IMG/VR virus record: IMGVR_UViG_3300026094_000002 | DNA: 64,000 nucleotides | Direction: 5' to 3' (one strand) | Source: a virus | Lineage: Duplodnaviria; Caudoviricetes | In this document: positions 40,844-63,706 of the stretch, one piece after another | Position numbering within the stretch: the first letter of the stretch is position 1 | Layout of the letters: each line of letters opens with the position of its first letter | Made by a program: the position numbers and the translations under genes | Notes under the pieces: model-generated | Seen by the model: the letters and a program-made list of their open reading frames with translations, nothing else | What the model was told of the DNA's origin: nothing | Database searches by the model: none

Positions 40844-43234
40844 TCACCCCAAAATTGTTTGATCTGGGAACAACAAATACTTATCCAGACGATCATCATC
40901 TATATACGAAACTTCATCTATACTACTGACTTCATTCCACGTCTGTGTTTCAGCATCCCAGAATTGTGTTCCTGCACCTTCTAATACATAACGCTCTACA
41001 TCAAAATCAACTTTGTTGAGTTCGCGTCCAATAAATTCACGTATGCGATAAGCGAGTTTTTCTCCTTCACCCGGTTTTACATATGCTATAACCCACGCTG
41101 GGACAAAGCCCAGCGGACGACCATCTTCTTGTTTGCTCGTCATCCAGTCAGGCAACACAAAATCACGCAGTCCGATAGAATCAAATAGTTGATTACGCAT
41201 ATTTACAAGACTGTTTGGATACAGTGTATCTGTTTGGCTTCCATCACGTAATGTAACTGTATTTGGCCATTCAATTTCTTCTGGAATACTTTCTAAATCG
41301 CGGTTAAGAGCAAGATCATTTATCTCACTATAGATAACTTCATATTTCACTGTGCCATCATCATTTAATGCTCTTGCTGTTTTTATTGAACCTAACACAA
41401 TACGTTTCCGAAAATGATTTTGGGACAATGCCGTGACATATTCATCTAATGTTTTTGGATTTAGCCCAAATGCGTGTTGATAGATTACAGAATCTGCAAT
41501 ACCAAAATTTGGGTCATTTCTGCGATAAACGGAATCAGGCGGAATAACATCACGGTTAAACAATAAACCATCAATCAAATCACGATCATTGCGTGGAGGA
41601 AGTGCTTTAATGTATATTGATTGCTGTGGAACCGCATCAGAATAATCTACTGTTACAGAAAAATCTCTAAGGGTAGATATAAATCCATCTTGTGTGAAAA
41701 CTTCTACCGTAAATGCGTAATCTTTTAATAAAGATGAGTCAGGGTCAATCACTGAACCAACACCATTAAATATACCAGCAATCTCGCCAGTTGAAAGTAG
41801 TGTTGTTCCCGGTGGCAAACTTCCTTGATTTAGGCGATAAAACAGTGGTTCATCATAAGATGATTCTGCTACCGTTTCTAACTCACTTATCACACCAGAA
41901 TTCACAGTACCCAAGTTTTCTGGCGATAGCCAAGTTATAAACTTCTCTATCTCACCAATAACTCTTAGTGTAAATGTGTTCGGTTCTGCATCAACCCATT
42001 CTTCTCCATTGAAAACTCTTGGTTTAACAAAGTATTTTTCAGACGATACAATTGTTGCACTATCTAATATAGGTCCATCATCAACTTTTCTGATTTTGAG
42101 TTCTTCGCCTTCTACAAACTCTACAGAAGATGTTTTTTGGACTACGAGCGTATTTGATTTTGGAGAACTGGTTACTACTCCTGTTGGTGTTTCTCCTGAT
42201 ACACTAACTCCATCCTGAGAAACATAATATCCACTTTGAACATTAACAACAATATCGTCATCAAGAACAATCTCATAAAAAATTGAATTTGCTTTTGTGA
42301 CAGTCACATCAAATGAAAAATTACGCTCAACTGCACCTTGGCTAGGTAGATATCCGTACAACCAACCAGTTGATCCTTCAAATTCTAAGCCATCTGGTAT
42401 AGTACCATCTAAAATAAATTCAATTGGATCACCATCAAAATCTAATGCATCAAATTTAAACGCATAATAGTTGTCTGCACGAACAGTTCCTAAGTCGGTT
42501 TCGGTTGTGGTCAAAACCGGCGGTCTTTCTGGAATAACATCGGCAGTTATGAATGTATTGTCACCAGTATTATTTGTATTATCTGATGTCATAGCATCAA
42601 CTGCATATACAAATATTTCAAATGTTCTTATGTTTGATTGTTTCCCATCAGAAACCTCTAATGTAAATTCGTAATTTTTTGAAACACTGTTATTACTGAA
42701 ATCAAAATCAAATTCATCAAATGCAGTAACGTCATATCCATCCCCTTCTGACGGACGGCGAAACGGCTCAATAAACCCTGAAATGTTACCATCCGAACTT
42801 AGTGTTAGGCCCGGTGGCAATTCTCCTGATAAAAGATCTACAGTTAGAGTTTCACCCGGATCAGTGTCTGTATAATCAACTGTAATATCAACTTTACTAC
42901 CATCATAGAATGTGCCTATTCTGCCAGATGATGTTATAAATTCTGGTTCATCTTGTCCTTGAACCGTAAGGTTAAATGTTCTATCTGCTATATTTCCAGA
43001 TTCATCGGTCGCTCTAACAACAAAAGTAGAAACAACATTTTTTGAAACTAAATCTGGAATTCCAGAAATTCTACCATCAGATCTAAGTGTCAATCCCGGA
43101 GGTAACTCTCCAGATATTATAGCATAAGATACTGAACTTTCTGACTCTGCTTCTAAAATTTTGCTATAGATAACACTTTCGGGAATTGTTCCCAAAGAAC
43201 CAGAATTCGTTACCCAACTAAGTACTGCAGACAT
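40844..43234 (-). CDS. baseplate wedge-like protein with putative Ig repeats
   Basis: Repeated SGELPPGLTL..G.ISG.P units. Confidence 0.7.
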   Translation of the reverse strand: MSAVLSWVTNSGSLGTIPESVIYSKILEAESESSVSYAIISGELPPGLTLRSDGRISGIPDLVSKNVVSTFVVRATDESGNIADRTFNLTVQGQDEPEFITSSGRIGTFYDGSKVDITVDYTDTDPGETLTVDLLSGELPPGLTLSSDGNISGFIEPFRRPSEGDGYDVTAFDEFDFDFSNNSVSKNYEFTLEVSDGKQSNIRTFEIFVYAVDAMTSDNTNNTGDNTFITADVIPERPPVLTTTETDLGTVRADNYYAFKFDALDFDGDPIEFILDGTIPDGLEFEGSTGWLYGYLPSQGAVERNFSFDVTVTKANSIFYEIVLDDDIVVNVQSGYYVSQDGVSVSGETPTGVVTSSPKSNTLVVQKTSSVEFVEGEELKIRKVDDGPILDSATIVSSEKYFVKPRVFNGEEWVDAEPNTFTLRVIGEIEKFITWLSPENLGTVNSGVISELETVAESSYDEPLFYRLNQGSLPPGTTLLSTGEIAGIFNGVGSVIDPDSSLLKDYAFTVEVFTQDGFISTLRDFSVTVDYSDAVPQQSIYIKALPPRNDRDLIDGLLFNRDVIPPDSVYRRNDPNFGIADSVIYQHAFGLNPKTLDEYVTALSQNHFRKRIVLGSIKTARALNDDGTVKYEVIYSEINDLALNRDLESIPEEIEWPNTVTLRDGSQTDTLYPNSLVNMRNQLFDSIGLRDFVLPDWMTSKQEDGRPLGFVPAWVIAYVKPGEGEKLAYRIREFIGRELNKVDFDVERYVLEGAGTQFWDAETQTWNEVSSIDEVSYIDDDRLDKYLLFPDQTILG

Positions 43235-45102
43235 TATACCCTCCCGACTGCAATCTCAACTGTTCCGCTATTGCCTTCAAAATTTTCTAATGATTTACCT
43301 ATTATGGTTCCGGGTTTGGGGTTTTCTTCTGCTCTGGCGTGTCCATCCCCATTTGAAACAAGAATTGATCCTTTTTTAATTTTTCCAGTAACCAAACAAG
43401 GTACTCGTCCTTGTAGTGCTACAGGGAGAGAAAAACTTTTGTTGTCAGATTCTAATGCTGTGTTCATAAGATATGCTGGATTTGTAGATATTACACCTGC
43501 TACTGCTGCATCTGAATCTATTTTGGATACTGTGACTTCACTTTCTCCACCAAAGGAGACCACAGTTCCCTGAGAATATTCACGATCAGAAAGATAGTTT
43601 TCGGCTAAGTCCGCATATTGAGCAGTTGTAGATGTTCCAGCGAAAATTGACGCACTAAGTGTTGAAGTTGATGGATTGTAAATAAAACCCGGGCTATCAA
43701 CAAATAAAGTATCTACATCTCCAGATGAACCAATCAAGAATGGCACAAAGAAGTTTGCAAATGCTGATGTGTCTTCAATCGGAACCTCACTCCCGGGCCC
43801 TGTGGCACCTTGGGGTCCGGTTGCACCTTGCGGTCCTTCTATACCAGTTGCACCTGTAGCACCTACTGGACCGTCCGAACCTGACAAACCCTCTGGGCCA
43901 GTAGCACCTGTTGGGCCCTCGGGTCCTGTCGCACCAGTTTCGCCCTCTGGGCCAATGGAGCCTTGCGGGCCCTCGATACCAGTTGCACCTGTGGCACCAG
44001 TAGCACCTTCAGCAGCAAACTCGCCCGGGATCCCTGTGGCACCGGTTGGACCGGTGGAGCCTGTGGCACCAGTAGCACCGCCGGGGTCGCCTTGTGGGCC
44101 TTCTGGGCCAGTGGCACCAGTGGCACCAACCCCTGTGGCACCTGTTGGCCCCACTTCTCCCTCGGGTCCTGTAGCACCTGTGGCACCGCCGGGGTCACCC
44201 TGAGGCCCCGTCGCACCAGTTAGCCCGATAGGTCCAGTCGCACCCGTGGCACCAAGACCTGTGGCACCCGTGGCACCGGTAGCACCGCCGGGGTCACCCT
44301 GAGGCCCTGTCGCACCGATTGTTCCCGGGTCGCCTGTTGCACCCATTACCCCTGTCGCACCCGTTGGACCAGTTGCACCAGTAGCACCTGCACCAGTTGC
44401 ACCTTGTGGTCCAGTTGCACCCTGTGGTCCTGTTAAGCCAGTGGCACCAAGTCCTGTGGAGCCTTGGGCACCTGTGGCACCTTGTGCTCCGGTTGCACCG
44501 GTTAGACCTGTTGCCCCCGTTTGTCCTTGTGGGCCTGTTGCACCCGGGACACCTGCAGCACCAGATAAATTAACCGTCCACTCAGAATAAGTTCCAGAGC
44601 CATTTGCTATATCAATTTCAGCCGTCATTGATCCTGTTGCTTCATCATAACTTGAAACAACACCAGTCATATCATTGCTCAAATCATGAACTATTATGAC
44701 TGGTTGCCCTGAAGACCACGCTAAATCTGTATCTACTGTTAATGTTTTTGATCCAGTGCCAATAGTCAATTCTGTTGTTGAGGATGTTGAGTATTGATCA
44801 CCAACTGGTCCCTCAACACCAGTTGCCCCTGTTGGACCTTCTGCCCCAGTTGCACCGATGCCCCCCTGTAGTCCGGTAGCACCTTGGTCTCCTTCAGGTC
44901 CTGTTGGACCAGTTGCACCTGTTGCACCTACACCAGATTGCCAAGCACGGTTGCCATCTGTGTCACTGGTTATAAAAAACCCGGGTCCCGGGGGTACCCC
45001 AAGATCTGGCTCTGCTTGTGCCAAATCTAAAAATTCATACCGGTCTTCACTGACTTCAGTGGGTGATATTTTTTTGACTTTTCCTGATAATAATTTTGAC
45101 AT
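43234..45102 (-). CDS. collagen-like tail fibre protein with C-terminal chaperone-like domain
   Basis: Long GATG/GPTG triplets; C-terminal [27 protein letters not shown]. Confidence 0.85.
43790..44934 (-). repeat. GC-rich Gly-X-Y collagen repeats in two blocks
   Basis: GATG triplets; [14 protein letters not shown] occurs three times. Confidence 0.9.
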
Positions 45103-45108
45103 AGTTTA

Positions 45109-45435
45109 TTAATTTTCTGATTCTAATATGCTTAACACCAACTGTATCGCATTATTTTGGCTGCCAGATACGGATATACTTTGGCTTTCCTTTAGTACCA
45201 ATTTCCCCGTCAATAATCCAGAAGAATCATTACTTGGAATGCCACTTTCAAAAGCCAAATAAGTTGTACTGCCACCTGATGTTTCAAGTGCTAATGTTAT
45301 ATTAGATGTATCAGACGTTACATTTGTGGCTTGAGCTAATATAACTATTGCACTAAATCCAATCGGTGCTGTATATATTGTTTCAGTTGTGTCTGTTACG
45401 CTATGTCTAACGTTTTCAAATCTGTTAAGAGCCAT
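45109..45435 (-). CDS. small virion-associated hypothetical protein
   Basis: Beta-rich 108 aa in the tail operon. Confidence 0.6.
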   Translation of the reverse strand: MALNRFENVRHSVTDTTETIYTAPIGFSAIVILAQATNVTSDTSNITLALETSGGSTTYLAFESGIPSNDSSGLLTGKLVLKESQSISVSGSQNNAIQLVLSILESEN

Positions 45436-45438
45436 CTT

Positions 45439-46734
45439 TTATCCTTCAATCGATAGTATGTATGGTGTTAATACGGCGAAGAGTGCTCGGTCAAATGCAT
45501 CCCCTTCAAGTGTTCCTGTTCTGCCGTTAATGGTAAGGTCATCACCAATTTGGAAATTTCCTCGGTGATCTGTGCTGGAATATATTACAGTTCCACCATC
45601 TTCTGTAACCACTTCATTTTCTTGTATTGCTATACCACCAGTTTGTGGTAGTGCATCTTGTAATTGGTTTCCTGCCCCCACAAACTCAAACGTATGAGAA
45701 CTGGCTGTAATTGTGCTTCTTTTATAAAATTTTACAGGTGTATTATCAGAAATCGGATTTACGATTGTATCGCCTATTGTGATTGTCACTTCGCCATTGT
45801 CTAATTCTGTAGTATCAATAACATTAAAAATCGTGGTTCCACCATCAAAACTCACGGATTGATCTATGTTGGGGCGTTCATCTAAACCATCAATAACAAA
45901 TGTTCTGCCAAACTGATCAACACCATTTGTAGCACCGTCATTTTCCATATCAACTTTTCCTCTGGAAAGTAATCCAAAGGTTCCGAAACTGGTGTTACTA
46001 TTTGTCAAACTGCATAAACCACCACTTTCGCATAATATTCCTATCTGTGTGCAAATAGTAAAAATACTAACTAATTGTGCATAACCTTGATTAAGAAGAT
46101 GAACACCTGTGCCACCGGAGTTAAATTGTGTAAAGGCATCTGCAACCATTGATCTGTTGCCTTGGGCCAAACTACCGTCTATTCGCATACCAGTACCAGT
46201 TGTAGTAATACTGGAACAGTTTTGAACATATGGGCTGGTATTAATTGATCCTGCACCTCCGCTGGGATAAGCAATTGCAGAAGCCGGGGAGACATGATCT
46301 CTAAAAGTCATATTGGCGATATAATCAGCGTTTTGTATATGAAATATATCTTGGTCTGTGATTTCTGGTCTTATAGTGACACTACGAAGACTATCGCCTA
46401 CGATACTCAATCGTGGAGGACAAACAATTGGGTTATCTTCTGTGTAATCCCCTGATTTGACAAATATACAAGCACGTCTATCAGTATTTTCATCTAAAAA
46501 TGCGGTTGCTACTTGTACAGCACGTTTAACCGTTAAGAATGCTTTGCCAAGTGAATCACCATTGTTGGAATCATCACCGTTTTTAGAAACATAATAGACA
46601 TTTTCTGCTACACCACCCAACTGTCTATTATATAACTCGTTAAAGTTTTGGTTTGTTTTGTCAAATGCCTCACGAATTGGATCGCCTAATTTGTCATTAG
46701 GTGCAAAACCAATATCGATAAACTGCTGGCCCAT
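45439..46734 (-). CDS. tail fibre/spike protein, beta-helix-like
   Basis: GDPIREAFDKTNQNF, YYVSKNGDDSNNG, IVGDSLRSV, SPYVQNCSS. Confidence 0.7.
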   Translation of the reverse strand: MGQQFIDIGFAPNDKLGDPIREAFDKTNQNFNELYNRQLGGVAENVYYVSKNGDDSNNGDSLGKAFLTVKRAVQVATAFLDENTDRRACIFVKSGDYTEDNPIVCPPRLSIVGDSLRSVTIRPEITDQDIFHIQNADYIANMTFRDHVSPASAIAYPSGGAGSINTSPYVQNCSSITTTGTGMRIDGSLAQGNRSMVADAFTQFNSGGTGVHLLNQGYAQLVSIFTICTQIGILCESGGLCSLTNSNTSFGTFGLLSRGKVDMENDGATNGVDQFGRTFVIDGLDERPNIDQSVSFDGGTTIFNVIDTTELDNGEVTITIGDTIVNPISDNTPVKFYKRSTITASSHTFEFVGAGNQLQDALPQTGGIAIQENEVVTEDGGTVIYSSTDHRGNFQIGDDLTINGRTGTLEGDAFDRALFAVLTPYILSIEG

Positions 46735-48471: not shown

Positions 48472-49041
48472 TTAGTAGTCATTAAGACGGATATTAATAG
48501 CATCCCAATTGACAATACGCCAAAAATTATTGACATATTTCTTTTTGTCCGCACGATAATCTAATGCAAATGAATGTTCCCACATATCAAGCGGAAGCAA
48601 TACATCATTTCTGACAGCGTGATTTTTGATTGTTTTAATATCACCTGAGCGTGAAAGATACACCCATCCAGACCCTTGGATTGACATAGCAGTTTTAAGC
48701 CATTCTTCTTTGAAATCTTCAAAGCTTCCGTGTTTGTCATGGATTAGTGCCAATGCAGAACCAGTTGGTCGATTGTTTTTTCTGGGTGCCTGTAATTGTG
48801 GAAAGAAAAGATTATGCAGATAACTGCCAGCACGATTGAATTCAGGGTCACCTTCGCCAGCATTGTACTTTTTTGCATAGTTTTTGGCCAGTGTATCATA
48901 ATGATATCTTATGGTATCTTCACTCATTACCGGCTCAAGGGCATCCCTTTCATACGGCAGAGGTGCAGTATCAAGACGCTTTGGCTTCTCAACTGCCTCA
49001 ATTAAATTTAGTTCGTTACGGATATTGTTTGCTATATTCAC
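48472..49041 (-). CDS. sod: Fe/Mn superoxide dismutase with N-terminal leader
   Basis: PLPYERDALEP, H of RYHY, HNLFF, GSGW, DMWEH; all four metal ligands present. Confidence 0.88.
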   Translation of the reverse strand: MNIANNIRNELNLIEAVEKPKRLDTAPLPYERDALEPVMSEDTIRYHYDTLAKNYAKKYNAGEGDPEFNRAGSYLHNLFFPQLQAPRKNNRPTGSALALIHDKHGSFEDFKEEWLKTAMSIQGSGWVYLSRSGDIKTIKNHAVRNDVLLPLDMWEHSFALDYRADKKKYVNNFWRIVNWDAINIRLNDY

Positions 49042-50781: not shown

Positions 50782-51336
50782 TTATTGATCAGCACGATAG
50801 AACACATGCTCGCCAATTTGGCCGATGTACTGAAATGATAAGTTCCATGATGGATTAACATAGGCTGCATGATAATGTGTTGAACCTTCAGTTATTCCAC
50901 GAAATGTTTTATTTTTTAGAATTTGATAAGCAATAGTTTGTGCATTTCTCCACGATTCCCGATCTTTTGGATCGTCACTCTTGCCATCACAGAACCAAGA
51001 AAATTGGCAACGGTGTTTAACAGGTACTTCTTTTCCAGTGTTTTCAAGGTGCCACTCAGAGACTGGTCCTTGTTGTACAACATCACAGATATTATTTGGC
51101 CACCGCGTATCACGAACACGATTAAGTACAACATCTGCAACCGCAAATTGTCCTGCTGTCATGTCAGAACGTGCTTCAAAATAAATGTTTTTTGCAAGGC
51201 AGCGAATCTGCTCGTGACTTTCATCAATCTCCCAATCGGTGTCATTAACCAATGTATCACTATTGGCAGAGAATGCAGAAATCCAGAATCCCATTGCAAT
51301 TACTACTGCAAAAAATGTTTTCATAATAAAAATCAT
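50782..51336 (-). CDS. SleB/Hydrolase_2 cell wall hydrolase
   Basis: CLAKNIYFEAR, VLNRV, CQFSW, STHYHA, IGEHVFY. Confidence 0.9.
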   Translation of the reverse strand: MIFIMKTFFAVVIAMGFWISAFSANSDTLVNDTDWEIDESHEQIRCLAKNIYFEARSDMTAGQFAVADVVLNRVRDTRWPNNICDVVQQGPVSEWHLENTGKEVPVKHRCQFSWFCDGKSDDPKDRESWRNAQTIAYQILKNKTFRGITEGSTHYHAAYVNPSWNLSFQYIGQIGEHVFYRADQ

Positions 51337-51837: not shown

Positions 51838-52623
51838 ATGCAAGAAGTGATTAAGATAGAATTTCGTGAGCGGTGTGCACTTTTTGCACGTATGAGTTCA
51901 ATTGTATATCACGATGTTGATAATGTGGTTAATAAATTAGAAAATACTGAATTTCGGTTAATGAATTCATATGATACCGATGGCTCTCAAGCATTTAGTT
52001 TTATATCTGAAACTGATTTAATTGTTGCGTGTAGAGGAACAGAGCCCGATTGTTGGGCTGATTTAAAAGCCGACCTGCGTGCTTGGCCTAAAAAGTCGTC
52101 ATCTGGTGGTCGAGTTCATAGTGGATTTTCGTGGCACGTATCAAAGATTTGGCCGCAAATTGTTGCTGATTTAGAAACTGCAAAAGCACAGGGCCTAAAT
52201 GTTTGGTTTACTGGTCATTCATTAGGTGGTGCAATGGCAACAATTTTAGCGTCTCGTTGCCGACACGATGAGACACTTCCTGATCCAGTTCAACTCTACA
52301 CTTTCGGTTCTCCAAGAGTAGGATGGCCGAAGTATGTTGATTCTCTTGCTATCAACCATGTGCGATGGGTTAATAATAATGACGCGGTTGCATACTTACC
52401 GCCCCGCATAATGGGATACAAACACCATGGATTTGAATATTATTTGAATGCTTGGGGAAATGTTCGTTCTCCCACATTGTGGCAACGAATTAAAGACAAG
52501 TTTCGTGGTTATTGGTTCGCATGGAAGCAAGGAAAAATTGATTCATTTTCTGATCACAGTATCTCAGATTATGTAAAACATCTTGAGAGACATGCCGAAG
52601 GTTTAGAAGTATTACAAAGATAG
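51838..52623 (+). CDS. class 3 lipase
   Basis: VACRGT, VHSGF, WFTGHSLGG, YTFGSPRVG, NDAV..LP, DHSI. Confidence 0.9.
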   Translation: MQEVIKIEFRERCALFARMSSIVYHDVDNVVNKLENTEFRLMNSYDTDGSQAFSFISETDLIVACRGTEPDCWADLKADLRAWPKKSSSGGRVHSGFSWHVSKIWPQIVADLETAKAQGLNVWFTGHSLGGAMATILASRCRHDETLPDPVQLYTFGSPRVGWPKYVDSLAINHVRWVNNNDAVAYLPPRIMGYKHHGFEYYLNAWGNVRSPTLWQRIKDKFRGYWFAWKQGKIDSFSDHSISDYVKHLERHAEGLEVLQR

Positions 52624-52627
52624 TACT

Positions 52628-54193
52628 TTAATCAATTCTTGGCGGTACTGTAAATGTGTGTGCTGGTGCAGGTGATGGTACTTCCCACTCTAGACCGTCC
52701 GCCCCTTCCCACGCTCTTGCATCTGCATTATTTTTGCCTCGGATACATTGCCATACTATAGCAAGAAACAATAGTTGGGTAAGACCGAATCCAAATCCAC
52801 CTATTGAACTAATCATATTCCAATCTGCAAACTGAACAGAATAGTCTGGTATGCGTCTTGGCATTCCTGCTAATCCTAAAAAATGTTGAGGGAAGAACAG
52901 TACATTCACAAATATTGTGCTGAGCCAAAAGTGCCACTGACCCAGTCTTTCTGAATAACGAGTGCCCGACCACTTTGGGAGCCAGTAATATGCCGCCGCT
53001 AATATTGCGAATACCGCTCCAGTTACCAAGACATAGTGAAAGTGTGCTACAACGAAATAGGTATCATGATACTGAAAATCTGCAGGAGCAATTGCTAGCA
53101 TTAAGCCAGAGAATCCACCTATTGTAAACAAGAATACAAATGCAAGAGCGAATAGCATTGGTGTTTCAAATGTCATAGCACCACGCCACATTGTGGCAAC
53201 CCAATTAAAGACTTTCACTCCAGTGGGAACTGATATCAACATTGTGGCATACATGAAGAAAAGTGTTCCTGCGAGCGGCATTCCTACAGTAAACATATGA
53301 TGTGCCCACACAATAAATGACAGGAACGCAATACTAGCAGTAGCATAAACCATTGAACTATATCCAAACAGTGGCTTACGAGCAAATGTAGGCAATATTG
53401 TAGATATAATACCAAATGCTGGCAGTATCATAATATAGACTTCTGGATGACCAAAAAACCAAAATATATGCTGATAAAGAACTGGGTCACCACCACCGGC
53501 TGCAGAGAAAAATGAAGTACCAAAGTACTGGTCGGTTAATAGCATTGTCACAGCACCAGACAGCACAGGCATAACAGCAATCATAAGATATGCAGTTACC
53601 AACCAAGTCCATGTAAAGATAGGCATCTTCATGAGAGTCATTCCGGGTGCTCTCATGTTTAATATGGTAGCCACAATATTAATTGAACCCATAATTGATG
53701 AAATGCCTAAAATGTGTATTGAGAATATAACAAATGGAAATGCCATGCCTGTTTGTAACATAAGGGGAGGATACATTGTCCATCCTCCCGCAGGACCACC
53801 GCCGGGCATGAATAGTGTTGAAAGTAGTACGGCAAACGCAAATGGCATTAGCCAGAAACTCCAGTTATTCATCCGGGGTAGGGCCATATCAGGTGCCCCT
53901 ATTTGCATGGGTATCATCCAGTTTGCTAAGCCAGTAAATGCTGGCATTACCGCACCAAAAATCATCACAAGAGCGTGCATAGTGGTCATTTGATTATAGA
54001 ATAATGGATCAACCAATTGCATACCGGGCATAAAAAGTTCTGCTCTTATGACCATTGCCATTGCACCACCAACAAAGAACATCAACAAACTCCACAGTAG
54101 GTACATTGATCCAATCTCTTTGTGGTTTGTAGTGGTTAGCCATCGTTTAATGCCGGTCGGCTCTATGTGTTCTGGTTGTGCTACGGTATCCAT
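52628..54193 (-). CDS. coxA: cytochrome c oxidase subunit I (aa3, A1 type)
   Basis: [42 protein letters not shown]; 521 aa, full length. Confidence 0.97.
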
Positions 54194-54196
54194 TGT

Positions 54197-54652
54197 TTAG
54201 ACTCCTACTGGTCCTATAAATTGTTTTAATTCTCGTGCAAGACTCTTCTGCTCGTCTGCGTCTAAAAATTCTGCAAATTCTACTTTATCACTTTTACAGT
54301 GTAAAAATAATCTTGTGTGTTTCCACCTTCTTGGTACATTTTCTAATATTACTTCGCACCATATTTTTTCAAAAGAAATAGAACTTGATTTTGTTTTTCT
54401 TCCTTTTTCTAATGTCACTGTTGTTCGGTCTATATGCAGTACATTTTTCTCAAAACTTTTTTCTGCTGAGTACCATAAACTAGCAGCCACAAGTAAAAAT
54501 TCTGCTCCAGCAAATGGCACTATTAACCACAAGCCCAATTGAAAAAAATATAAAGATATAGAGAATAAAACGATTCCTAACAATGCCAAAAATCTTATTG
54601 ACAACCGCCAATCAGATTGAAATGACGGAGAAATAACATAGGTTTTATTCAT
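54197..54652 (-). CDS. DUF2244-like membrane protein
   Basis: ISPS..two transmembrane helices GLWLIVPFAGAEF..; C-terminal VEFAEFLDADEQKSLA. Confidence 0.7.
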   Translation of the reverse strand: MNKTYVISPSFQSDWRLSIRFLALLGIVLFSISLYFFQLGLWLIVPFAGAEFLLVAASLWYSAEKSFEKNVLHIDRTTVTLEKGRKTKSSSISFEKIWCEVILENVPRRWKHTRLFLHCKSDKVEFAEFLDADEQKSLARELKQFIGPVGV

Positions 54653-54659
54653 TACGAAC

Positions 54660-54665
54660 TATTTA
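54660..54665 (-). promoter_or_regulatory. late promoter TAAATA of the DUF2244-coxA unit
   Basis: 7 nt upstream of ATG 54652; same motif precedes many late genes. Confidence 0.6.
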
Positions 54666-54715
54666 GACAATACCATTACTATATCCTAAAATAGAGAGGG
54701 AATAAATACCTCATA

Positions 54716-55375
54716 ATGCTTATTAAAGAATTATTTGAAGCAGACAGAACCTATTCTGGAGACCCACTTGAAAAAGGTGGCACATCTATTAAAGGACAAG
54801 GTGCTGCTCCAGTCATCAAAAATCTTGCTGGCAAGGGAATATTCCAAGGTAAAACAGTGCTTGATTATGGTGCCGGAAAGTATGGCAGAAATGCAGAAGC
54901 AATCAAAGCAGCCGGTGGAACTGTCTATGCCTATGACCCATTTCACGGCAGTGGCTCTGATGGTTGGAATAGTGTTGCAGGAACACTTCCAGATAATAAA
55001 TTTGACATTGCATTTACCAGTTATGTTTTAAATGTGGTTCCAGAAAAAACCGAAGACCAAATATTGCGTGATGTAGAATCTCGCTCTAATAATATTTTAC
55101 ACATTACAAGAAATATGGATATATTTCAATCAGTTAAGAAAGCATTAATAAGAAAGGATAGTACGGTTGGCAATTTCTTTTTAGAACAGTTTGCCAATGA
55201 ACAAGAACGCGAGGCATTTGAAGAAGGTACGCTTAATGATGAAACTATATTAGAGTTTTGCAAACACGGTGTCCAGACTTCACGTGGTTTTCAGCGAATA
55301 CCAGAACTTGAAAATAAGGGATATAATTTAAAACAAAATACAGTTGGTTATAAACTTTATACTAGAGGAATGTAA
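54716..55375 (+). CDS. class I SAM-dependent methyltransferase with MLIKELFE leader
   Basis: VLDYGAGK, YAYDP, FTSYVLNVV; TAAATA at 54703-54708. Confidence 0.75.
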   Translation: MLIKELFEADRTYSGDPLEKGGTSIKGQGAAPVIKNLAGKGIFQGKTVLDYGAGKYGRNAEAIKAAGGTVYAYDPFHGSGSDGWNSVAGTLPDNKFDIAFTSYVLNVVPEKTEDQILRDVESRSNNILHITRNMDIFQSVKKALIRKDSTVGNFFLEQFANEQEREAFEEGTLNDETILEFCKHGVQTSRGFQRIPELENKGYNLKQNTVGYKLYTRGM

Positions 55376-55380
55376 ATAAA

Positions 55381-56550
55381 TTAGTAAATTTTGAGAAGAC
55401 TGTTTAATTCAGGATGAGAATCAACTAATTTTTCTTCACGAAATAAATCTATTCTTTTAATTTCAGATTTTAATTCATTAAAATAATCAAAATTAGATTC
55501 ACCATCATTCATAAATTTAATAATATTATTAATATCATCGGTATCGTGAGGTAACAAGGCTTCTTCAATTTTTTCTTTTATGTCTTGCGGCAGATACTTG
55601 ACACAAAATCGTTCTTCAACAATTAACATACTCCAATTAATATGCATTAGGGGATAATGTTCTTTCATCCATCTTATAATTTTTTTAAAGTCTAATATAT
55701 TAAAAACGCTGACAGTCATATTACATGATAATGAGATATTTGTATTTTTATTAGCCAACTGCTCAAATGCATCCAAGTTTTTAACTAATGTATTCCAATC
55801 AGATTTTGATCTTTCATATTCAAATTTTTCAAAGATATTATCTATACTAACCATTATATCAACACTTTTGAATTTTTTCCAACTTTCAATAATATCTTTA
55901 TTTGGTAATATTGTTCCATTAGTAACATAGTCTATTTCAATATTTGAAACATCGCTAGTATTTGAAAATTTTTCAAGTAGTTGAAAGTGCTGATTTATCA
56001 GGAACGGTTCACCACCATAAAAACTTATTTTGGATAATAATGGAAGGTAATTTTCTAAATCCTCCCAAAATACTTTTGATGTTATAGGCCATTGTCCTTT
56101 TTTAAGAATTTCAAATTCAAACGAACTGCGTTTTTCTTCATCAGAATGGGTTTTTAATTCATTTTTTGCCCAGATACTACTTGCCCACGGCCCACATATT
56201 CGACACCGCAAATTGCATATGTTTCCAAATGCAATTGATAAACTGCTAAATTGACTTTGAACATCACCATTAAAATCAGTTTCTTTTTGCCTCAAACTCA
56301 TAATACCATTATCTTCTTCTTGCCAGCATTGAGCACAGGAAATAGGTTTTTTATTGTTTGATAAATCAGAGCGTAATTTTTTTAGATGATTGCTATTATA
56401 AATCTCATAAAAAGAATTTTTATTAACATTAAATTCTAAATTGTTTTTATCTTTAAGCCTATCACCCCAAATACAACATGGTGCTACACTACCATCCGCA
56501 TTAATTTCTAAGTTTTTCCATGGCTTACTACAAAAAGTTTCAGACAACAT
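55381..56550 (-). CDS. twitch/SPASM-domain radical SAM protein
   Basis: FCSKPW..PCC..CAQCW, CNLRCRIC, FYGGEPF, TNG; AT-rich. Confidence 0.88.
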   Translation of the reverse strand: MLSETFCSKPWKNLEINADGSVAPCCIWGDRLKDKNNLEFNVNKNSFYEIYNSNHLKKLRSDLSNNKKPISCAQCWQEEDNGIMSLRQKETDFNGDVQSQFSSLSIAFGNICNLRCRICGPWASSIWAKNELKTHSDEEKRSSFEFEILKKGQWPITSKVFWEDLENYLPLLSKISFYGGEPFLINQHFQLLEKFSNTSDVSNIEIDYVTNGTILPNKDIIESWKKFKSVDIMVSIDNIFEKFEYERSKSDWNTLVKNLDAFEQLANKNTNISLSCNMTVSVFNILDFKKIIRWMKEHYPLMHINWSMLIVEERFCVKYLPQDIKEKIEEALLPHDTDDINNIIKFMNDGESNFDYFNELKSEIKRIDLFREEKLVDSHPELNSLLKIY

Positions 56551-56554
56551 AATT

Positions 56555-58105
56555 TTAATTTATTTCTGCTTGAACTTGGAAGAATTCGAGTTCAGGATCA
56601 TCATCACCAAAACTAACACTATCACTAACATCCATAGAGAAGTTTAAGCCACGCTTTTCTGCTATCTTCTGAACATTATTTAACATTTGCATTGACTTTT
56701 TATGGGGACTTGTAATTAGAGTCTTGCCGTTTTGCATTGCCGATATCAACATATTGATAAATGTTTTTACATCTTCAATATCGTTTTTAAGAAGTCGTCT
56801 ACTTTTACTATTGATACCGATAAGAAAGATTTCTTCTGGTGTTTCATACCATTGCGTCACAAAGTTGCCAGTGCCTGACTTCATTGTTTTTAATTCACCA
56901 TTAGGATAAAACGCTTGTAATGCTTGTTTGCTTTGTTTGGCTAAATCAACAACTTCTGGAGATTTATCACCAAAGTTTTTTTGTGTTAATTCATCATACT
57001 CTTCACTTGAGGTGGATGAAACATCTTCTTGAACTTCGTCGTCAATATCAAAAAATTCTTTGTACTTGTTCCAAGGTGGTTGATATTGTTTAATTTGTTC
57101 TTCCGCTTCTGGCCACCTACCTTTGATAAAATCACGTGCATACGCAAAAGCATAGTATGGATTTTGTTTAATCGCTTCTTCACCTTCTGGCCACCTACCT
57201 TTGATAAAATCACGTGCATACATAAAAGCATATTGTGGGCTTTGTTTAATCGCTTCTTCACCCTCTGGAAATCTGCCACCGATAGCGTCATCGGCATAAT
57301 AATAAGCTTTTCTTGGGTCCTGTTTAATCGCTTCTTCACTTTTGGCAAATACCTTTTTAAGCACTGGATGTTTGGTTCTAAAATATTGCAGCAATTCAGA
57401 GTCTATTCTTTCGTCGTTTTCGTCCATGAATTGGAAATCTTCACCAAAATGAAATTGGAACTTGTTGCTTTGTTTTTTCTCTGGCATCTTGCGTGAAGGA
57501 ATCCACACATATAAAGGACCTTGCTTTGAATAGTTTCTAAACATATTATCTGACTGAGTGGCAGCCGTACACCAACGAGTACCACTACCAATTTCACAAG
57601 AAGCCTCGGTAGTACGTGGAATAATTAACTGTCCCATATCTCCGACATAAAGCACCTCCATATCGTCAATATGTTCATAATCAAGATTCGCATCAACTGG
57701 TTCTTCTAAATCAGTGGCTTTTTTGAGTTTAGTGGCAATTTCTCGCAAATCACGCCAAGTGTATTTGTTTATATCCGTCTCAATACCAAGTTGTTGCTTT
57801 CTTTGCTTTGGTAACTCGTGAAAATCTTGGATATCATTGCGTAAAAACTCATTGATATCTTCAAGCTTCAAACTATTTTTCACAAACTGACGAACAATCC
57901 ATAGAACATATTTTTTATTAGGGGTGGGGTCAACGGATTCTATTCTACTCAGAACATTTTGACTAAGAGCATAAATTTGTTCTGGTGCAAGTTCTTCGTC
58001 TTTAATTCGTGGGTTGTCCAATTTTGCAGTATTCGCGATAGCAGTACCCATTTGTTCAATGGTTTTGTCTCGGTCATACTCAAAAAGAAATTCTTTTGAA
58101 CGCAT
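56555..58105 (-). CDS. modular late protein (MRSKEFLFE leader; WCTAA domain; 22-aa repeats)
   Basis: TAAATA 4 nt upstream of ATG 58105; GSGTRWCTAA. Confidence 0.7.
   Translation of the reverse strand: MRSKEFLFEYDRDKTIEQMGTAIANTAKLDNPRIKDEELAPEQIYALSQNVLSRIESVDPTPNKKYVLWIVRQFVKNSLKLEDINEFLRNDIQDFHELPKQRKQQLGIETDINKYTWRDLREIATKLKKATDLEEPVDANLDYEHIDDMEVLYVGDMGQLIIPRTTEASCEIGSGTRWCTAATQSDNMFRNYSKQGPLYVWIPSRKMPEKKQSNKFQFHFGEDFQFMDENDERIDSELLQYFRTKHPVLKKVFAKSEEAIKQDPRKAYYYADDAIGGRFPEGEEAIKQSPQYAFMYARDFIKGRWPEGEEAIKQNPYYAFAYARDFIKGRWPEAEEQIKQYQPPWNKYKEFFDIDDEVQEDVSSTSSEEYDELTQKNFGDKSPEVVDLAKQSKQALQAFYPNGELKTMKSGTGNFVTQWYETPEEIFLIGINSKSRRLLKNDIEDVKTFINMLISAMQNGKTLITSPHKKSMQMLNNVQKIAEKRGLNFSMDVSDSVSFGDDDPELEFFQVQAEIN
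57086..57350 (-). repeat. 66-bp coding tandem repeat (A.xYARDFIKGRWPE.EE.IKQ)
   Basis: tctggccacctacctttgataaaatcacgtgcatac recurs at a 66 bp spacing; about 3.5 units. Confidence 0.85.
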
Positions 58106-58229
58106 AAAGTATTTATTAATTATAAACATAACAATAAATAGAAGCGGAAAGATAAGTTCTACCTGACATCTGGCAAAGACCGGGGCGACCGCCTTACAAG
58201 TCATCGTTTTACATTAAAGGAATTAAAAA

Positions 58230-62202: not shown

Positions 62203-62433
62203 TTATAAGGAAAAAAGAGTTTCGTCTGTCTTACCCGCATTCCAGCGATCTACTGCGTCTTGCTTGCTGGAGCCATAAACGATTCTGCCACAACCAGTGT
62301 TATGAATTTGACAAACCACATTCCATTCTGTGAAATCGCCGGTGGAATGATCACGCTTACTGGGATAAAGGGTGTCAATCAGTTCCCAATTTGCATTCCA
62401 ATCTTTACCACATTTGATGCAAGGGTCAATCAT
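62203..62433 (-). CDS. Lar-like (restriction alleviation) zinc-ribbon protein
   Basis: CIKCG..VVC....GCG..SKQDAVDRWN. Confidence 0.55.
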   Translation of the reverse strand: MIDPCIKCGKDWNANWELIDTLYPSKRDHSTGDFTEWNVVCQIHNTGCGRIVYGSSKQDAVDRWNAGKTDETLFSL

Positions 62434-63706
62434 TTTTTATTTCCTCTAATGCATCAGCAAACTGATCCACTGCCCATTCAATTTGATCTTCTGTGACAAT
62501 GAGTGGTGGAATCCAGCGAATAACATTGCCACCCCAAGGGCCACACTTGATCATGATTAACCCTTTATGCTCAAGAATTTTCAGCATCTTAGCTGCTCTT
62601 TCACCACCGGTCATAATATCTGTATCCGCAAGGTGAGTTCCAATCATTAGACCTTTGCCAGTTACAGCAACAATTTCTGGGTGCCTACGCTGCAAGAACA
62701 GCAATTTTTCTTTTAGTTTAGCACCCATCTTGGCAGCGTTTTCTACTAAGTTTTCGTCACGAATAACATCCAGAGTGGCTAATCCTGCAGCACAAGCCAC
62801 TGCATTACCACCATATGTGCCACCTTGAGATCCCGGAAAGGCTTTGTTCATAAGTTCTCGTGGTGCAGCCATGAATGATAACTGAAAGCCGCTTGCAACA
62901 CCTTTAGCAGATACCACCACATCGGGCGTAACATTATAGTGTTCAAAACCCCACATTTTACCAGTTCTGCCATTACCTGCCTGTACTTCGTCCATGATCA
63001 GCAAAATGCCGTGTTTTTTACAACGCTCTTCCAGTCCCTGCATGAAACGCTTGCTTGCAGTGATATATCCTGCTTCTCCCTGAATGCTTTCTATCAGCAT
63101 TGCAGCAGTTTCCATAGGCACACTCTGCACCTGCAGGATATAATCAAGTTCACGCAAACAGAAGTCTGCAGCCTCATCCTCTGTCATATTATACCAATTA
63201 GTGTCGGGGAAAGGTGCCGTTACAACGCCACCCATCATAGGCTGCACACCCTGACGAACAGCAGCACTCGAGGTAGTTGTGCTTAGACTTCCCATAGTCC
63301 TACCGTGGAAGCAGCCACGGAAAGCAATAATATTTGGCTTGCCGGTTGCCTGTCGTGCCAGTCGGATTGATGCTTCCACTGCCTCTGTTCCTGCACTTGA
63401 AAAGAATACAGAATTTATAGAATCAGGCAATAATTCACAAATTCGATCTGACAATTCTAAAATAGGGCGATGCTTCATAATAGCATACTGGGCATGCACT
63501 ACTTTATCAATCTGATCCTTTGCAGCCTCAATAACTTTTGGGTGAGAATGCCCTGTGCTTAAAACGCCAATTCCCGAAGAAAAATCCATATATCCCTTGC
63601 CATCTTCTCCCCATACATACATGCCTTCAGCATGATCTACAACAACGTCAGATGTTTGGCGTAGCAGTGGGGAAAGATGATGTTCGTGTTCGCTTGTGTT
63701 TTGCAT
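62426..63706 (-). CDS. gabT: class III PLP aminotransferase (4-aminobutyrate transaminase-like)
   Basis: YMDFSSGIG, SAGTEAVE, FHGRT, ESIQGEAG, DEVQAGNGRTG, SAKG, GTYGGN. Confidence 0.85.
   Translation of the reverse strand: MQNTSEHEHHLSPLLRQTSDVVVDHAEGMYVWGEDGKGYMDFSSGIGVLSTGHSHPKVIEAAKDQIDKVVHAQYAIMKHRPILELSDRICELLPDSINSVFFSSAGTEAVEASIRLARQATGKPNIIAFRGCFHGRTMGSLSTTTSSAAVRQGVQPMMGGVVTAPFPDTNWYNMTEDEAADFCLRELDYILQVQSVPMETAAMLIESIQGEAGYITASKRFMQGLEERCKKHGILLIMDEVQAGNGRTGKMWGFEHYNVTPDVVVSAKGVASGFQLSFMAAPRELMNKAFPGSQGGTYGGNAVACAAGLATLDVIRDENLVENAAKMGAKLKEKLLFLQRRHPEIVAVTGKGLMIGTHLADTDIMTGGERAAKMLKILEHKGLIMIKCGPWGGNVIRWIPPLIVTEDQIEWAVDQFADALEEIKND

Follow-up and report, generated by a model that had tools for sequence, protein, structure and literature searches.

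Cytochrome c oxidase subunit I and a DUF2244 membrane protein encoded by a jumbo tailed phage: a possible respiratory counterpart of psbA

What could a tailed phage gain from encoding the catalytic subunit of an aerobic respiratory oxidase when none of the other subunits comes with it? The question is posed by a gene pair on a 64,000-nucleotide stretch of viral DNA (Duplodnaviria; Caudoviricetes; IMG/VR record IMGVR_UViG_3300026094_000002), hereafter the window, which corresponds to bases 63021-127020 of a 194.5-kb linear virus record: coxA (ctaD), the gene for cytochrome c oxidase subunit I, follows a gene for a membrane protein of the DUF2244 family. An earlier reading, made by a model from the sequence alone, saw in this pair a possible respiratory counterpart of psbA. 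Judged from its genes, composition and relatives, the pair forms an auxiliary metabolic cassette of two genes in a jumbo tailed phage, set behind the phage's own TAAATA-type motif, and by the same evidence it is genuine, old, selected and host-derived, long resident and diversified in phages and phage-like in composition. As to its use, we think it fairly likely that the phage resupplies subunit I to the host oxidase and thereby sustains respiration, with DUF2244 acting as a chaperone.

The identity of the enzyme is the firmest part of this answer. CoxA matches Pfam COX1 (PF00115) from end to end (E 1e-160; 535.8 bits against a cut-off of 34.8), scores 698.8 bits over residues 18-519 against NCBIfam TIGR02891 CtaD_CoxA, above the equivalog cut-off of 670.75, and aligns over residues 11-519 to Paracoccus denitrificans 1ar1_A (E 3e-166), where its six His ligands and Tyr253 fall on the corresponding residues. 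The full 521-aa protein with its ligands, HPEVY motif, D- and K-path residues and Arg pair, as listed by the sequence-only reading, could all be located by alignment (Table 1), and the profile score, the invariant ligands and the Glu/D-channel/K-channel signature place it in type A1. Full length and equipped with all ligands, GHPEVY and both channels, it resembles the cellular aa3 subunits of Spiribacter sp., P. denitrificans (1AR1) and Rhodobacter sphaeroides (1M56); it differs from them in lacking coxB and coxC alongside, in its GC content at third codon positions (GC3), which is 0.36 compared with 0.58 in Spiribacter coxA (and 0.22 in phage DUF2244), and in clade-specific substitutions. Only 10 substitutions fixed in the phage copies are rare among 115 cellular homologues, for example Q55M, M97Q, H411T and Y511A, and none lies at a ligand, in the D or K channel, or in the Arg pair; most phage-fixed changes are conservative (D26E, T29S, F66Y, L192I, L204M) and the rest are peripheral. 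The identities, spacing and catalytic residues of the cassette are not explicable by chance.

The partner gene scores 87.9 bits against Pfam PF10003 (gathering cut-off 27), and the DUF2244-like gene reported just upstream of coxA, with a TAAATA box in front, is confirmed in both identity and spacing. Because the spacer is so short and a GGAG lies 10 nt before the coxA ATG, inside the 3' end of DUF2244, the pair is probably transcribed as one mRNA, with coupled translation. Subunits II and III and assembly factors had been described as missing from the 64 kb; tblastn with host cox proteins and Pfam agree in finding no COX2, COX3, cytochrome b or assembly-factor gene in the window or in the whole 194.5-kb record, which represents about 56% of the genome by CheckV's estimate. 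The cassette stands among genes of phage style, as had also been noted: its flanks match the PHROG families phrog_21992 (esterase/lipase), phrog_14086 (radical SAM) and phrog_28193. Elsewhere the window encodes tail fibres, among them collagen-like ones, as well as an ATP-dependent protease, and outside it the same record carries baseplate wedge (E 2.7e-287) and baseplate hub genes; the family B DNA polymerase, PolB, is about 48% identical to that of the PA5oct/Atu_ph07/SCTP-2 group of jumbo phages, the closest relatives. With phage genes on both sides and an arrangement that is reproducible in other assemblies, coxA lies inside a bona fide phage genome.

Where did the pair come from? The closest named proteins to phage CoxA are those of Spiribacter (87% identity) and Sediminicurvatus (86%). 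In a maximum-likelihood tree of 73 sequences, nine phage CoxA copies form a single clade with an approximate likelihood-ratio support (SH-aLRT) of 99, on a stem branch of 0.11 substitutions per site, and this clade nests with Spiribacter and Sediminicurvatus with a support of 95; the gammaproteobacterial look of the protein is thereby narrowed to a host sister group, and the phage-specific clade that the sequence-only reading had asked about is there. Its question about host operons has an answer too. They read DUF2244-coxB-coxA, continuing as -(38 aa)-coxC-DUF2909-SURF1-...-CtaA-CtaB in Spiribacter and as -cox11-coxC in Alkalilimnicola, and so the phage pair corresponds to the head of an Ectothiorhodospira-type cox operon minus coxB; DUF2244 is absent from the cox loci of Plasticicumulans and from 80 Halieaceae-type loci. 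In the host, coxB directly precedes coxA, whereas in the phage DUF2244 takes that place. It is plausible, from this gene order, that a contiguous operon head was captured and coxB then lost; no coxB remnant is visible in the DUF2244-coxA spacer, which measures 3 nt here and 1 nt in the related contig L018. The host is most likely, on the phylogeny, a Spiribacter-like halophilic gammaproteobacterium.

Selection has kept the captured gene intact. Pairs of phage coxA copies have synonymous divergence (dS) of 1.5 to >3, near or at saturation, and nonsynonymous-to-synonymous ratios (dN/dS) of 0.011-0.045, against 0.017-0.086 for cellular coxA pairs run through the same script. By this measure phage coxA is as constrained as cellular coxA, and relaxed selection is excluded; dN/dS between phage copies of DUF2244 is 0.09-0.20. 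Host derivation, a phage-specific clade and purifying selection within phages together mark coxA as an auxiliary metabolic gene (AMG).

The cassette recurs in other phages. Eight further low-GC coxA copies come from independent metagenome assemblies, and contigs with a GC content of 0.29-0.42 from other samples and assemblers encode proteins that share 89-98% identity with the phage CoxA or DUF2244. Samples holding such contigs, for example 3300038323 and ERZ27257101, are from salterns or brines. In the contigs L018, L016/L017, L002 and L009, all independently assembled, coxA keeps the same phage neighbours, and the identical junctions there exclude a chimera. The alleles have moved between phages: DNA identity between the window and L018 is 93-99% in DUF2244 and 73-87% in coxA, dS is 0.14 and 1.49, respectively, and the recombination breakpoint falls near the junction of the two genes, a break from which it follows that coxA alleles have been exchanged among phage lineages. 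The methyltransferase gene on the far side of DUF2244 is likewise mosaic relative to L018 (78-99%). A search of 50,697 GenBank phage records with the cassette (blastn and tblastn) returned no close relative; the 40-47% matches that did appear lie on contigs that are host-like or lack annotation and resemble host DNA filed under phage, and we set them aside. PHROGs holds no family for CoxA or DUF2244.

Sister phages have taken up more of the respiratory chain. Between DUF2244 and coxA some of them carry a full-length cytochrome b of the bc1 complex, 85-88% identical to that of Spiribacter, and about ten phage-type cytochrome b variants occur on short metagenome contigs. On L012/L013 (IMGVR_UViG_3300007611_000189) the DUF2244-cytochrome b pair is preceded by genes for SdhA (TIGR01816, 895 bits), a c-type cytochrome, an HhH-GPD glycosylase, an IscA-like protein, serine hydroxymethyltransferase and the catalase-peroxidase KatG; scanning IMG/VR with the DUF2244 alignment yielded one further viral contig only, the same as L013. 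A more distant phage contig, L010 (GC 0.40), which has five genes in common with the 194.5-kb record, carries genes for a ClpP-like protein and DUF454 followed by coxB, coxA and cox11, and L011 carries coxA, cox11 and a redoxin gene. The L010 CoxA is 86-89% identical to CoxA of marine Luminiphilus/Halieaceae, where the operon order is coxB-coxA-cox11-coxC, and the GC3 of the L010 cox genes is 0.32-0.40, compared with 0.62-0.74 in Halieaceae hosts. On this evidence L010 is a second, independent cox capture, with coxA as the common element.

DUF2244 proteins combine two transmembrane helices with a bacterial PH-like (PHb) domain and have no known function (PMC2817789). The phage protein is 36% identical to Spiribacter DUF2244, from which it differs in lacking a C-terminal tail of about 32 aa, and has 14 homologues of the phage type at 61-98% identity; NCBIfam holds no DUF2244 model. 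An AlphaFold2 (AF2) model (mean predicted local distance difference test, pLDDT, 73; predicted TM score, pTM, 0.41) places helices at residues 15-39 and 44-66; a small beta-rich, PHb-like domain, taken to be cytoplasmic, and a C-terminal helix follow. A Foldseek search of the PDB with this model gave nothing below E 0.8, leaving the PH-like fold with no structural match there, and the top row, Tetrahymena complex IV, was discarded as noise (TM score 0.2). The link between DUF2244 and CoxA gains from co-folding the two, each entered as an alignment built for the present analysis: the interaction prediction score from aligned errors (ipSAE) is 0.70 (0.74, 0.70 and 0.70 in three runs), compared with 0.00 for the best of three controls, and a score of 0.70 or more was obtained for 58 of the 80 solved complexes and for 2 of the 110 mismatched pairs used in calibration. 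Partner pLDDT is 72 or higher, and the runs agree in 67% or more of their contacts. In the predicted interface, DUF2244 residues 9-66 meet CoxA residues 99-108 (the loop of the D-channel Asp), 167-187, 202-220 and 239-246, and the topology is consistent, the cytoplasmic ends of DUF2244 contacting the cytoplasmic II-III loop of CoxA. The co-fold favours binding, short of showing it, and nearly all phage variants keep DUF2244 together with coxA, heading the cassette. We propose DUF2244 as a candidate CoxA-binding assembly or stabilising factor. Subunit I already has such factors in SURF1 and CtaG/Cox11 of bacteria and in mitochondrial Cox14/Coa3. DUF2244 is like them in being a small membrane protein; in Ectothiorhodospira-type bacteria its gene is part of the cox operon, and the co-fold predicts that it binds subunit I. 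It is unlike them in that it shows no relation in sequence or detectable fold and is missing from many cox operons.

The sequence-only reading had placed the pair under a late promoter, and here its claim has to be divided. The promoter-like motif is real: across the 194.5-kb record, no 7-mer is more enriched upstream of genes than ATAAATA (26 genes, 19.5-fold). Of 235 crude gene calls, 25 have a TAAATA that ends 5-8 nt before the ATG, where about 0.32 would be expected, and 12 have one that ends 21-24 nt before it, with a GGAG-type Shine-Dalgarno (SD) sequence in between, again with about 0.32 expected, so that the spacing of (A/T)TAAATA to the start codon is strictly bimodal. Since a spacing of 5-8 nt leaves no room for an SD sequence, these transcripts would be leaderless or nearly so. 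The box precedes DUF2244, the divergent methyltransferase gene, the lipase gene, a SleB-like gene, a baseplate wedge gene and one tail-fibre gene; in the window, instances can be seen at 54660-54665, at 54703-54710 and upstream of 45439-46734. What stays conjectural is the word late, which draws on analogy with T4 and on the presence of the motif before some structural genes. The exact T4 late box, TATAAATA, occurs three times in the window compared with 6.4 expected and is not enriched, the box here is TCTAAATA instead, and we dropped the strict T4-late label. The phage motif is alike in form to the T4 late promoter, but its consensus (A/T)TAAATA at fixed spacing is its own; judged by enrichment and spacing, (A/T)TAAATA is a real, phage-specific promoter-like motif.

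How might the pair serve infection? We posit that an ancestor of the phage group captured the head of a host aa3 oxidase operon, and that fresh subunit I, the hydrophobic core that holds heme a and heme a3-CuB and forms the base of assembly, is made during infection. Phage CoxA would enter the host membrane, receive heme A and copper from the host's CtaA/CtaB, SURF1 and Sco/CtaG, and then join host CoxB and CoxC. This would uphold cytochrome c oxidase capacity after host expression declines, and with it proton motive force and the supply of ATP; electron back-pressure and reactive oxygen species (ROS) would be kept low. Meanwhile, the transmembrane helices of DUF2244 could dock on CoxA helices IV-VI and on the loop at the D-channel entrance, where the protein would probably act as a chaperone or placeholder for unassembled subunit I.

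This scheme follows the logic of psbA and psbD in cyanophages, and the likeness goes deep. In both cases the phage copy encodes the core subunit of a membrane complex that transduces energy in the host, a hydrophobic protein that binds cofactors; the genes come from hosts, form phage-specific clades, are held by purifying selection and have a phage-like composition; the remainder of the complex is missing, which makes assembly with host subunits necessary; and phage lineages recombine, as the coxA mosaic illustrates. The differences are that the complex here is respiratory complex IV (with complex III in relatives), that the hosts are aerobic heterotrophs of brines, and that phage coxA is accompanied by a small membrane partner. 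Expression and incorporation have moreover been shown experimentally for psbA, whereas for phage coxA both are proposed.

Several points weigh against resupply. Expression, protein and activity are what we infer from genes and models. We know of no evidence that bacterial subunit I turns over as fast as D1 does, and the psbA analogy is incomplete for that reason; in vitro, aa3 oxidase is known to become inactivated through turnover. Because the record holds no coxB, coxC or genes for heme A and copper insertion, the scheme depends wholly on host parts, and the compatibility of phage CoxA with host subunits is deduced from their 87% identity only. CheckV puts the record at about 56% complete, and because of this other cox genes may sit in the missing part of the genome. 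The assignment of the host comes from gene phylogeny and sample co-occurrence, without a CRISPR or tRNA link; the window holds no tRNA genes and hence no host clue of that kind. The DUF2244 fold model is of moderate quality only, on the scores given above, and the co-fold expresses the model's confidence on our own alignments. In the relative L006 a different gene stands directly upstream of coxA, so that DUF2244 may not be obligatory.

The best-surviving alternative is that the phage subunit alters the host oxidase, changing its O2 affinity, H+ stoichiometry, resistance to inactivation or tolerance of salt or ROS, or else drives the number of complexes beyond that of uninfected cells, subunit I synthesis being limiting. 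The clade's own stem branch with its 10 rare fixed substitutions could be taken this way, as could the far-diverged, tailless DUF2244, and the cytochrome b, SdhA and cytochrome c of relatives could boost the entire chain. The fixed substitutions nevertheless miss every ligand, both channels and the Arg pair, most of them being conservative, and the gene is constrained at the level of cellular coxA, as expected if its function is unchanged. We therefore regard an altered or enlarged oxidase pool as unlikely, and so few phage-specific changes, none of them at a functional site, lend no support to the earlier suggestion that proton motive force or oxygen affinity is changed. Because no functional site differs, a re-tuned oxidase ranks below like-for-like replacement, which is the best reading of the comparison.

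An antagonistic CoxA, that is, a poison subunit sequestering CoxB/CoxC, heme A or copper, or a device for superinfection exclusion, would explain why the protein lacks partners of its own, and a promoter motif common to genes of many classes would suit it. A decoy, however, needs no full ligand set, two proton channels and Mg site under cellular-level constraint; the related lineage with coxB and cox11 points to a working enzyme, and superoxide dismutase (SOD) and KatG as neighbours argue for protecting aerobic metabolism, which makes antagonism improbable in our view. Slightly less credible still is a nearly neutral passenger, host DNA not yet lost and playing no role in infection. Host-like genes are common in jumbo phages, and this locus does gain and lose genes, a radical-SAM gene being absent in L018 and a Metallophos gene absent here; however, the copies form a single old clade whose dS is saturated while dN/dS stays as low as reported above, GC3 is fully ameliorated, the cassette is kept in at least eight independent assemblies and a related phage lineage took up cox genes independently, so we reject the passenger on selection data, composition and recurrence. 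An artefact, whether a chimeric assembly or a stretch of bacterial DNA (island or plasmid) wrongly classed as viral, deserves mention given a linear, incomplete metagenome record, but is rejected as next to inconceivable on the phage-like, un-host-like composition of coxA and DUF2244, the recurrence of both phage-side junctions in contigs of other samples and assemblers, and the jumbo myovirus-type structural and replication genes around the cassette.

Resupply of subunit I thus remains our preferred explanation, and it bears on more than one phage. Phage genes for electron transport are an accepted category, exemplified by plastid terminal oxidase (PTOX) and NDH-1 genes of cyanophages and by amoC-phages, and cox1 and cob are the respiratory genes most persistently kept in mitochondrial genomes. 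Reads of cbb3 subunit I have been found in the marine viral fraction (PMC3474794), coxA and coxB are among the AMGs of beach viral operational taxonomic units (vOTUs) (bioRxiv 10.64898/2026.04.10.717577), and amoC occurs on phages of 155-338 kb (bioRxiv 10.64898/2026.06.18.733297); these earlier reports are lists or concern other enzymes. In the open-access literature on phage aa3 CoxA, phage cytochrome b, Spiribacter phages and the function of DUF2244 we found catalogue-level mentions only, and no account of a phage aa3 CoxA clade, of its linkage to DUF2244 and cytochrome b, or of independent captures. To these the cassette would add a core-subunit AMG of the psbA kind that is respiratory. 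More tentatively, and with more doubt than belief, we suggest that jumbo phages of aerobic heterotrophs have repeatedly captured cox1/cob-type genes, that synthesis of core subunits limits the upkeep of respiration in the infected cell, and that DUF2244 is a subunit-I-specific aa3 assembly chaperone acting at the face of the D-channel entrance, possibly at the site of subunit III. If core-subunit synthesis is indeed limiting, coxA would be a true respiratory counterpart of psbA and psbD, extending the logic of core-subunit resupply from photosynthesis to the aerobic respiration of heterotrophs. The case is unusually clean: the phage clade is old, its constraint matches that in cells, and cox genes were captured twice, independently, from hosts of different families. 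It could give a handle on the limiting steps in the upkeep of respiratory complexes, echoing why organelles keep cox1 and cob; it offers DUF2244 a first concrete role open to testing; and it predicts Spiribacter, abundant in brines of intermediate salinity, as host of an uncultured jumbo-phage group, whose infections may shape oxygen consumption in salterns.

Table 1. The coxA cassette, its neighbours and related loci. Positions are those of the window unless a contig is named; residues are numbered in CoxA.
Feature	Position or residues	Strand	Details
coxA/ctaD, complete A1-type subunit I, phage allele	52628..54193	-	521 aa, COX1 + TIGR02891
Heme a ligands	His73, His386		
Heme a3 ligand	His384		
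CuB ligands	His249, His298, His299		
Helix VI motif, type A1	G248-H-P-E251-V-Y253		GHPEVY; Glu251, cross-linked Tyr253
D channel	Asp102, Asn109/110		
K channel	Lys327		
Mg site	His376, Asp377		
Arg pair	Arg446, Arg447		
Spacer, DUF2244 stop (TAA) to coxA ATG	54194..54196	-	3 nt, read directly
DUF2244 membrane protein	54197..54652	-	151 aa, Pfam PF10003 E 6.8e-25
TAAATA box	54660..54665	-	7 nt before DUF2244 ATG; context TCTAAATAG, box TCTAAATA
Recombination breakpoint relative to L018	54182-54330		
Class-3 lipase/esterase	51838..52623	+	convergent with coxA, 4-nt gap; Lipase_3 E 1.4e-22, phrog_21992
Methyltransferase-like gene, divergent from DUF2244	54716..55375	+	weak Methyltransf_23 match; AATAAATA box 7 nt before ATG
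Radical-SAM/SPASM gene	55381-56550	-	389 aa, SPASM at N-terminus
Fe/Mn superoxide dismutase	48472..49041	-	Sod_Fe_C E 2.7e-23, Sod_Fe_N E 2.3e-8
Class-III aminotransferase	62426..63706	-	best NCBIfam: aspartate aminotransferase family/GABA-type transaminases
Cytochrome b in sister phages	L016 4970-6211; L002 2-1243; L012 10461-10739		
Respiratory and other genes upstream of DUF2244-cytochrome b	L012/L013 3224-9957		
Second cox capture	L010 2280-6472		
coxA, cox11, redoxin	L011 1-2785		
L018 gene order			methyltransferase, DUF2244, coxA, Metallophos, lipase, 128-aa gene, SleB-like hydrolase; the window's order, one gene more, one less
L016/L017 gene order			methyltransferase, KatG, DUF2244, aminotransferase, cytochrome b, coxA, Metallophos, lipase
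L012-L014 gene order			KatG, DUF2244, cytochrome b
L009			59-kb IMG/VR contig, begins inside coxA

The surroundings of the cassette are partly fixed and partly fluid. Homologues of the lipase adjoin coxA in L002, L009, L016 and L018, with or without a Metallophos phosphoesterase between them; that phosphoesterase is present in L018, L016 and L002 and absent here, just as the radical-SAM/SPASM gene is present here and absent in L018, and these comparisons mark the cassette locus as a hot spot at which genes are gained and lost. The methyltransferase-like gene has a 78% identical homologue at the same position in L016 and L018, and the aminotransferase has a 76% identical one that sits between DUF2244 and cytochrome b in L016/L017. 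The SOD, a protein of 189 aa whose N-terminal hairpin domain is matched in part only, is encoded 3.6 kb from coxA, outside the operon; KatG lies directly upstream of DUF2244 in sister phages, and the two suggest an oxidative-stress gene set around the respiratory genes. A SleB-type hydrolase with an N-terminal hydrophobic segment (50782-51336, minus strand) is, like the lipase, a conserved neighbour of the cassette across relatives; both may be lysis or envelope-remodelling genes.

Farther out, a 549-aa protein (56555-58204, minus strand), with weak PHROG matches only, contains three to four tandem repeats of about 29 aa, similar to EEAIKQxPxYAFxYARDFIKGRWPEGEE. Outside the window, a single open reading frame of 4662 aa (G000:C1:174162-188150, minus strand) beside the baseplate genes presumably encodes a giant fibre or adhesin. 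Within the window, whose GC content is 0.37, a GC peak of 0.47-0.51 at 43000-46000 coincides with the collagen-like tail-fibre gene at 43234-45102.

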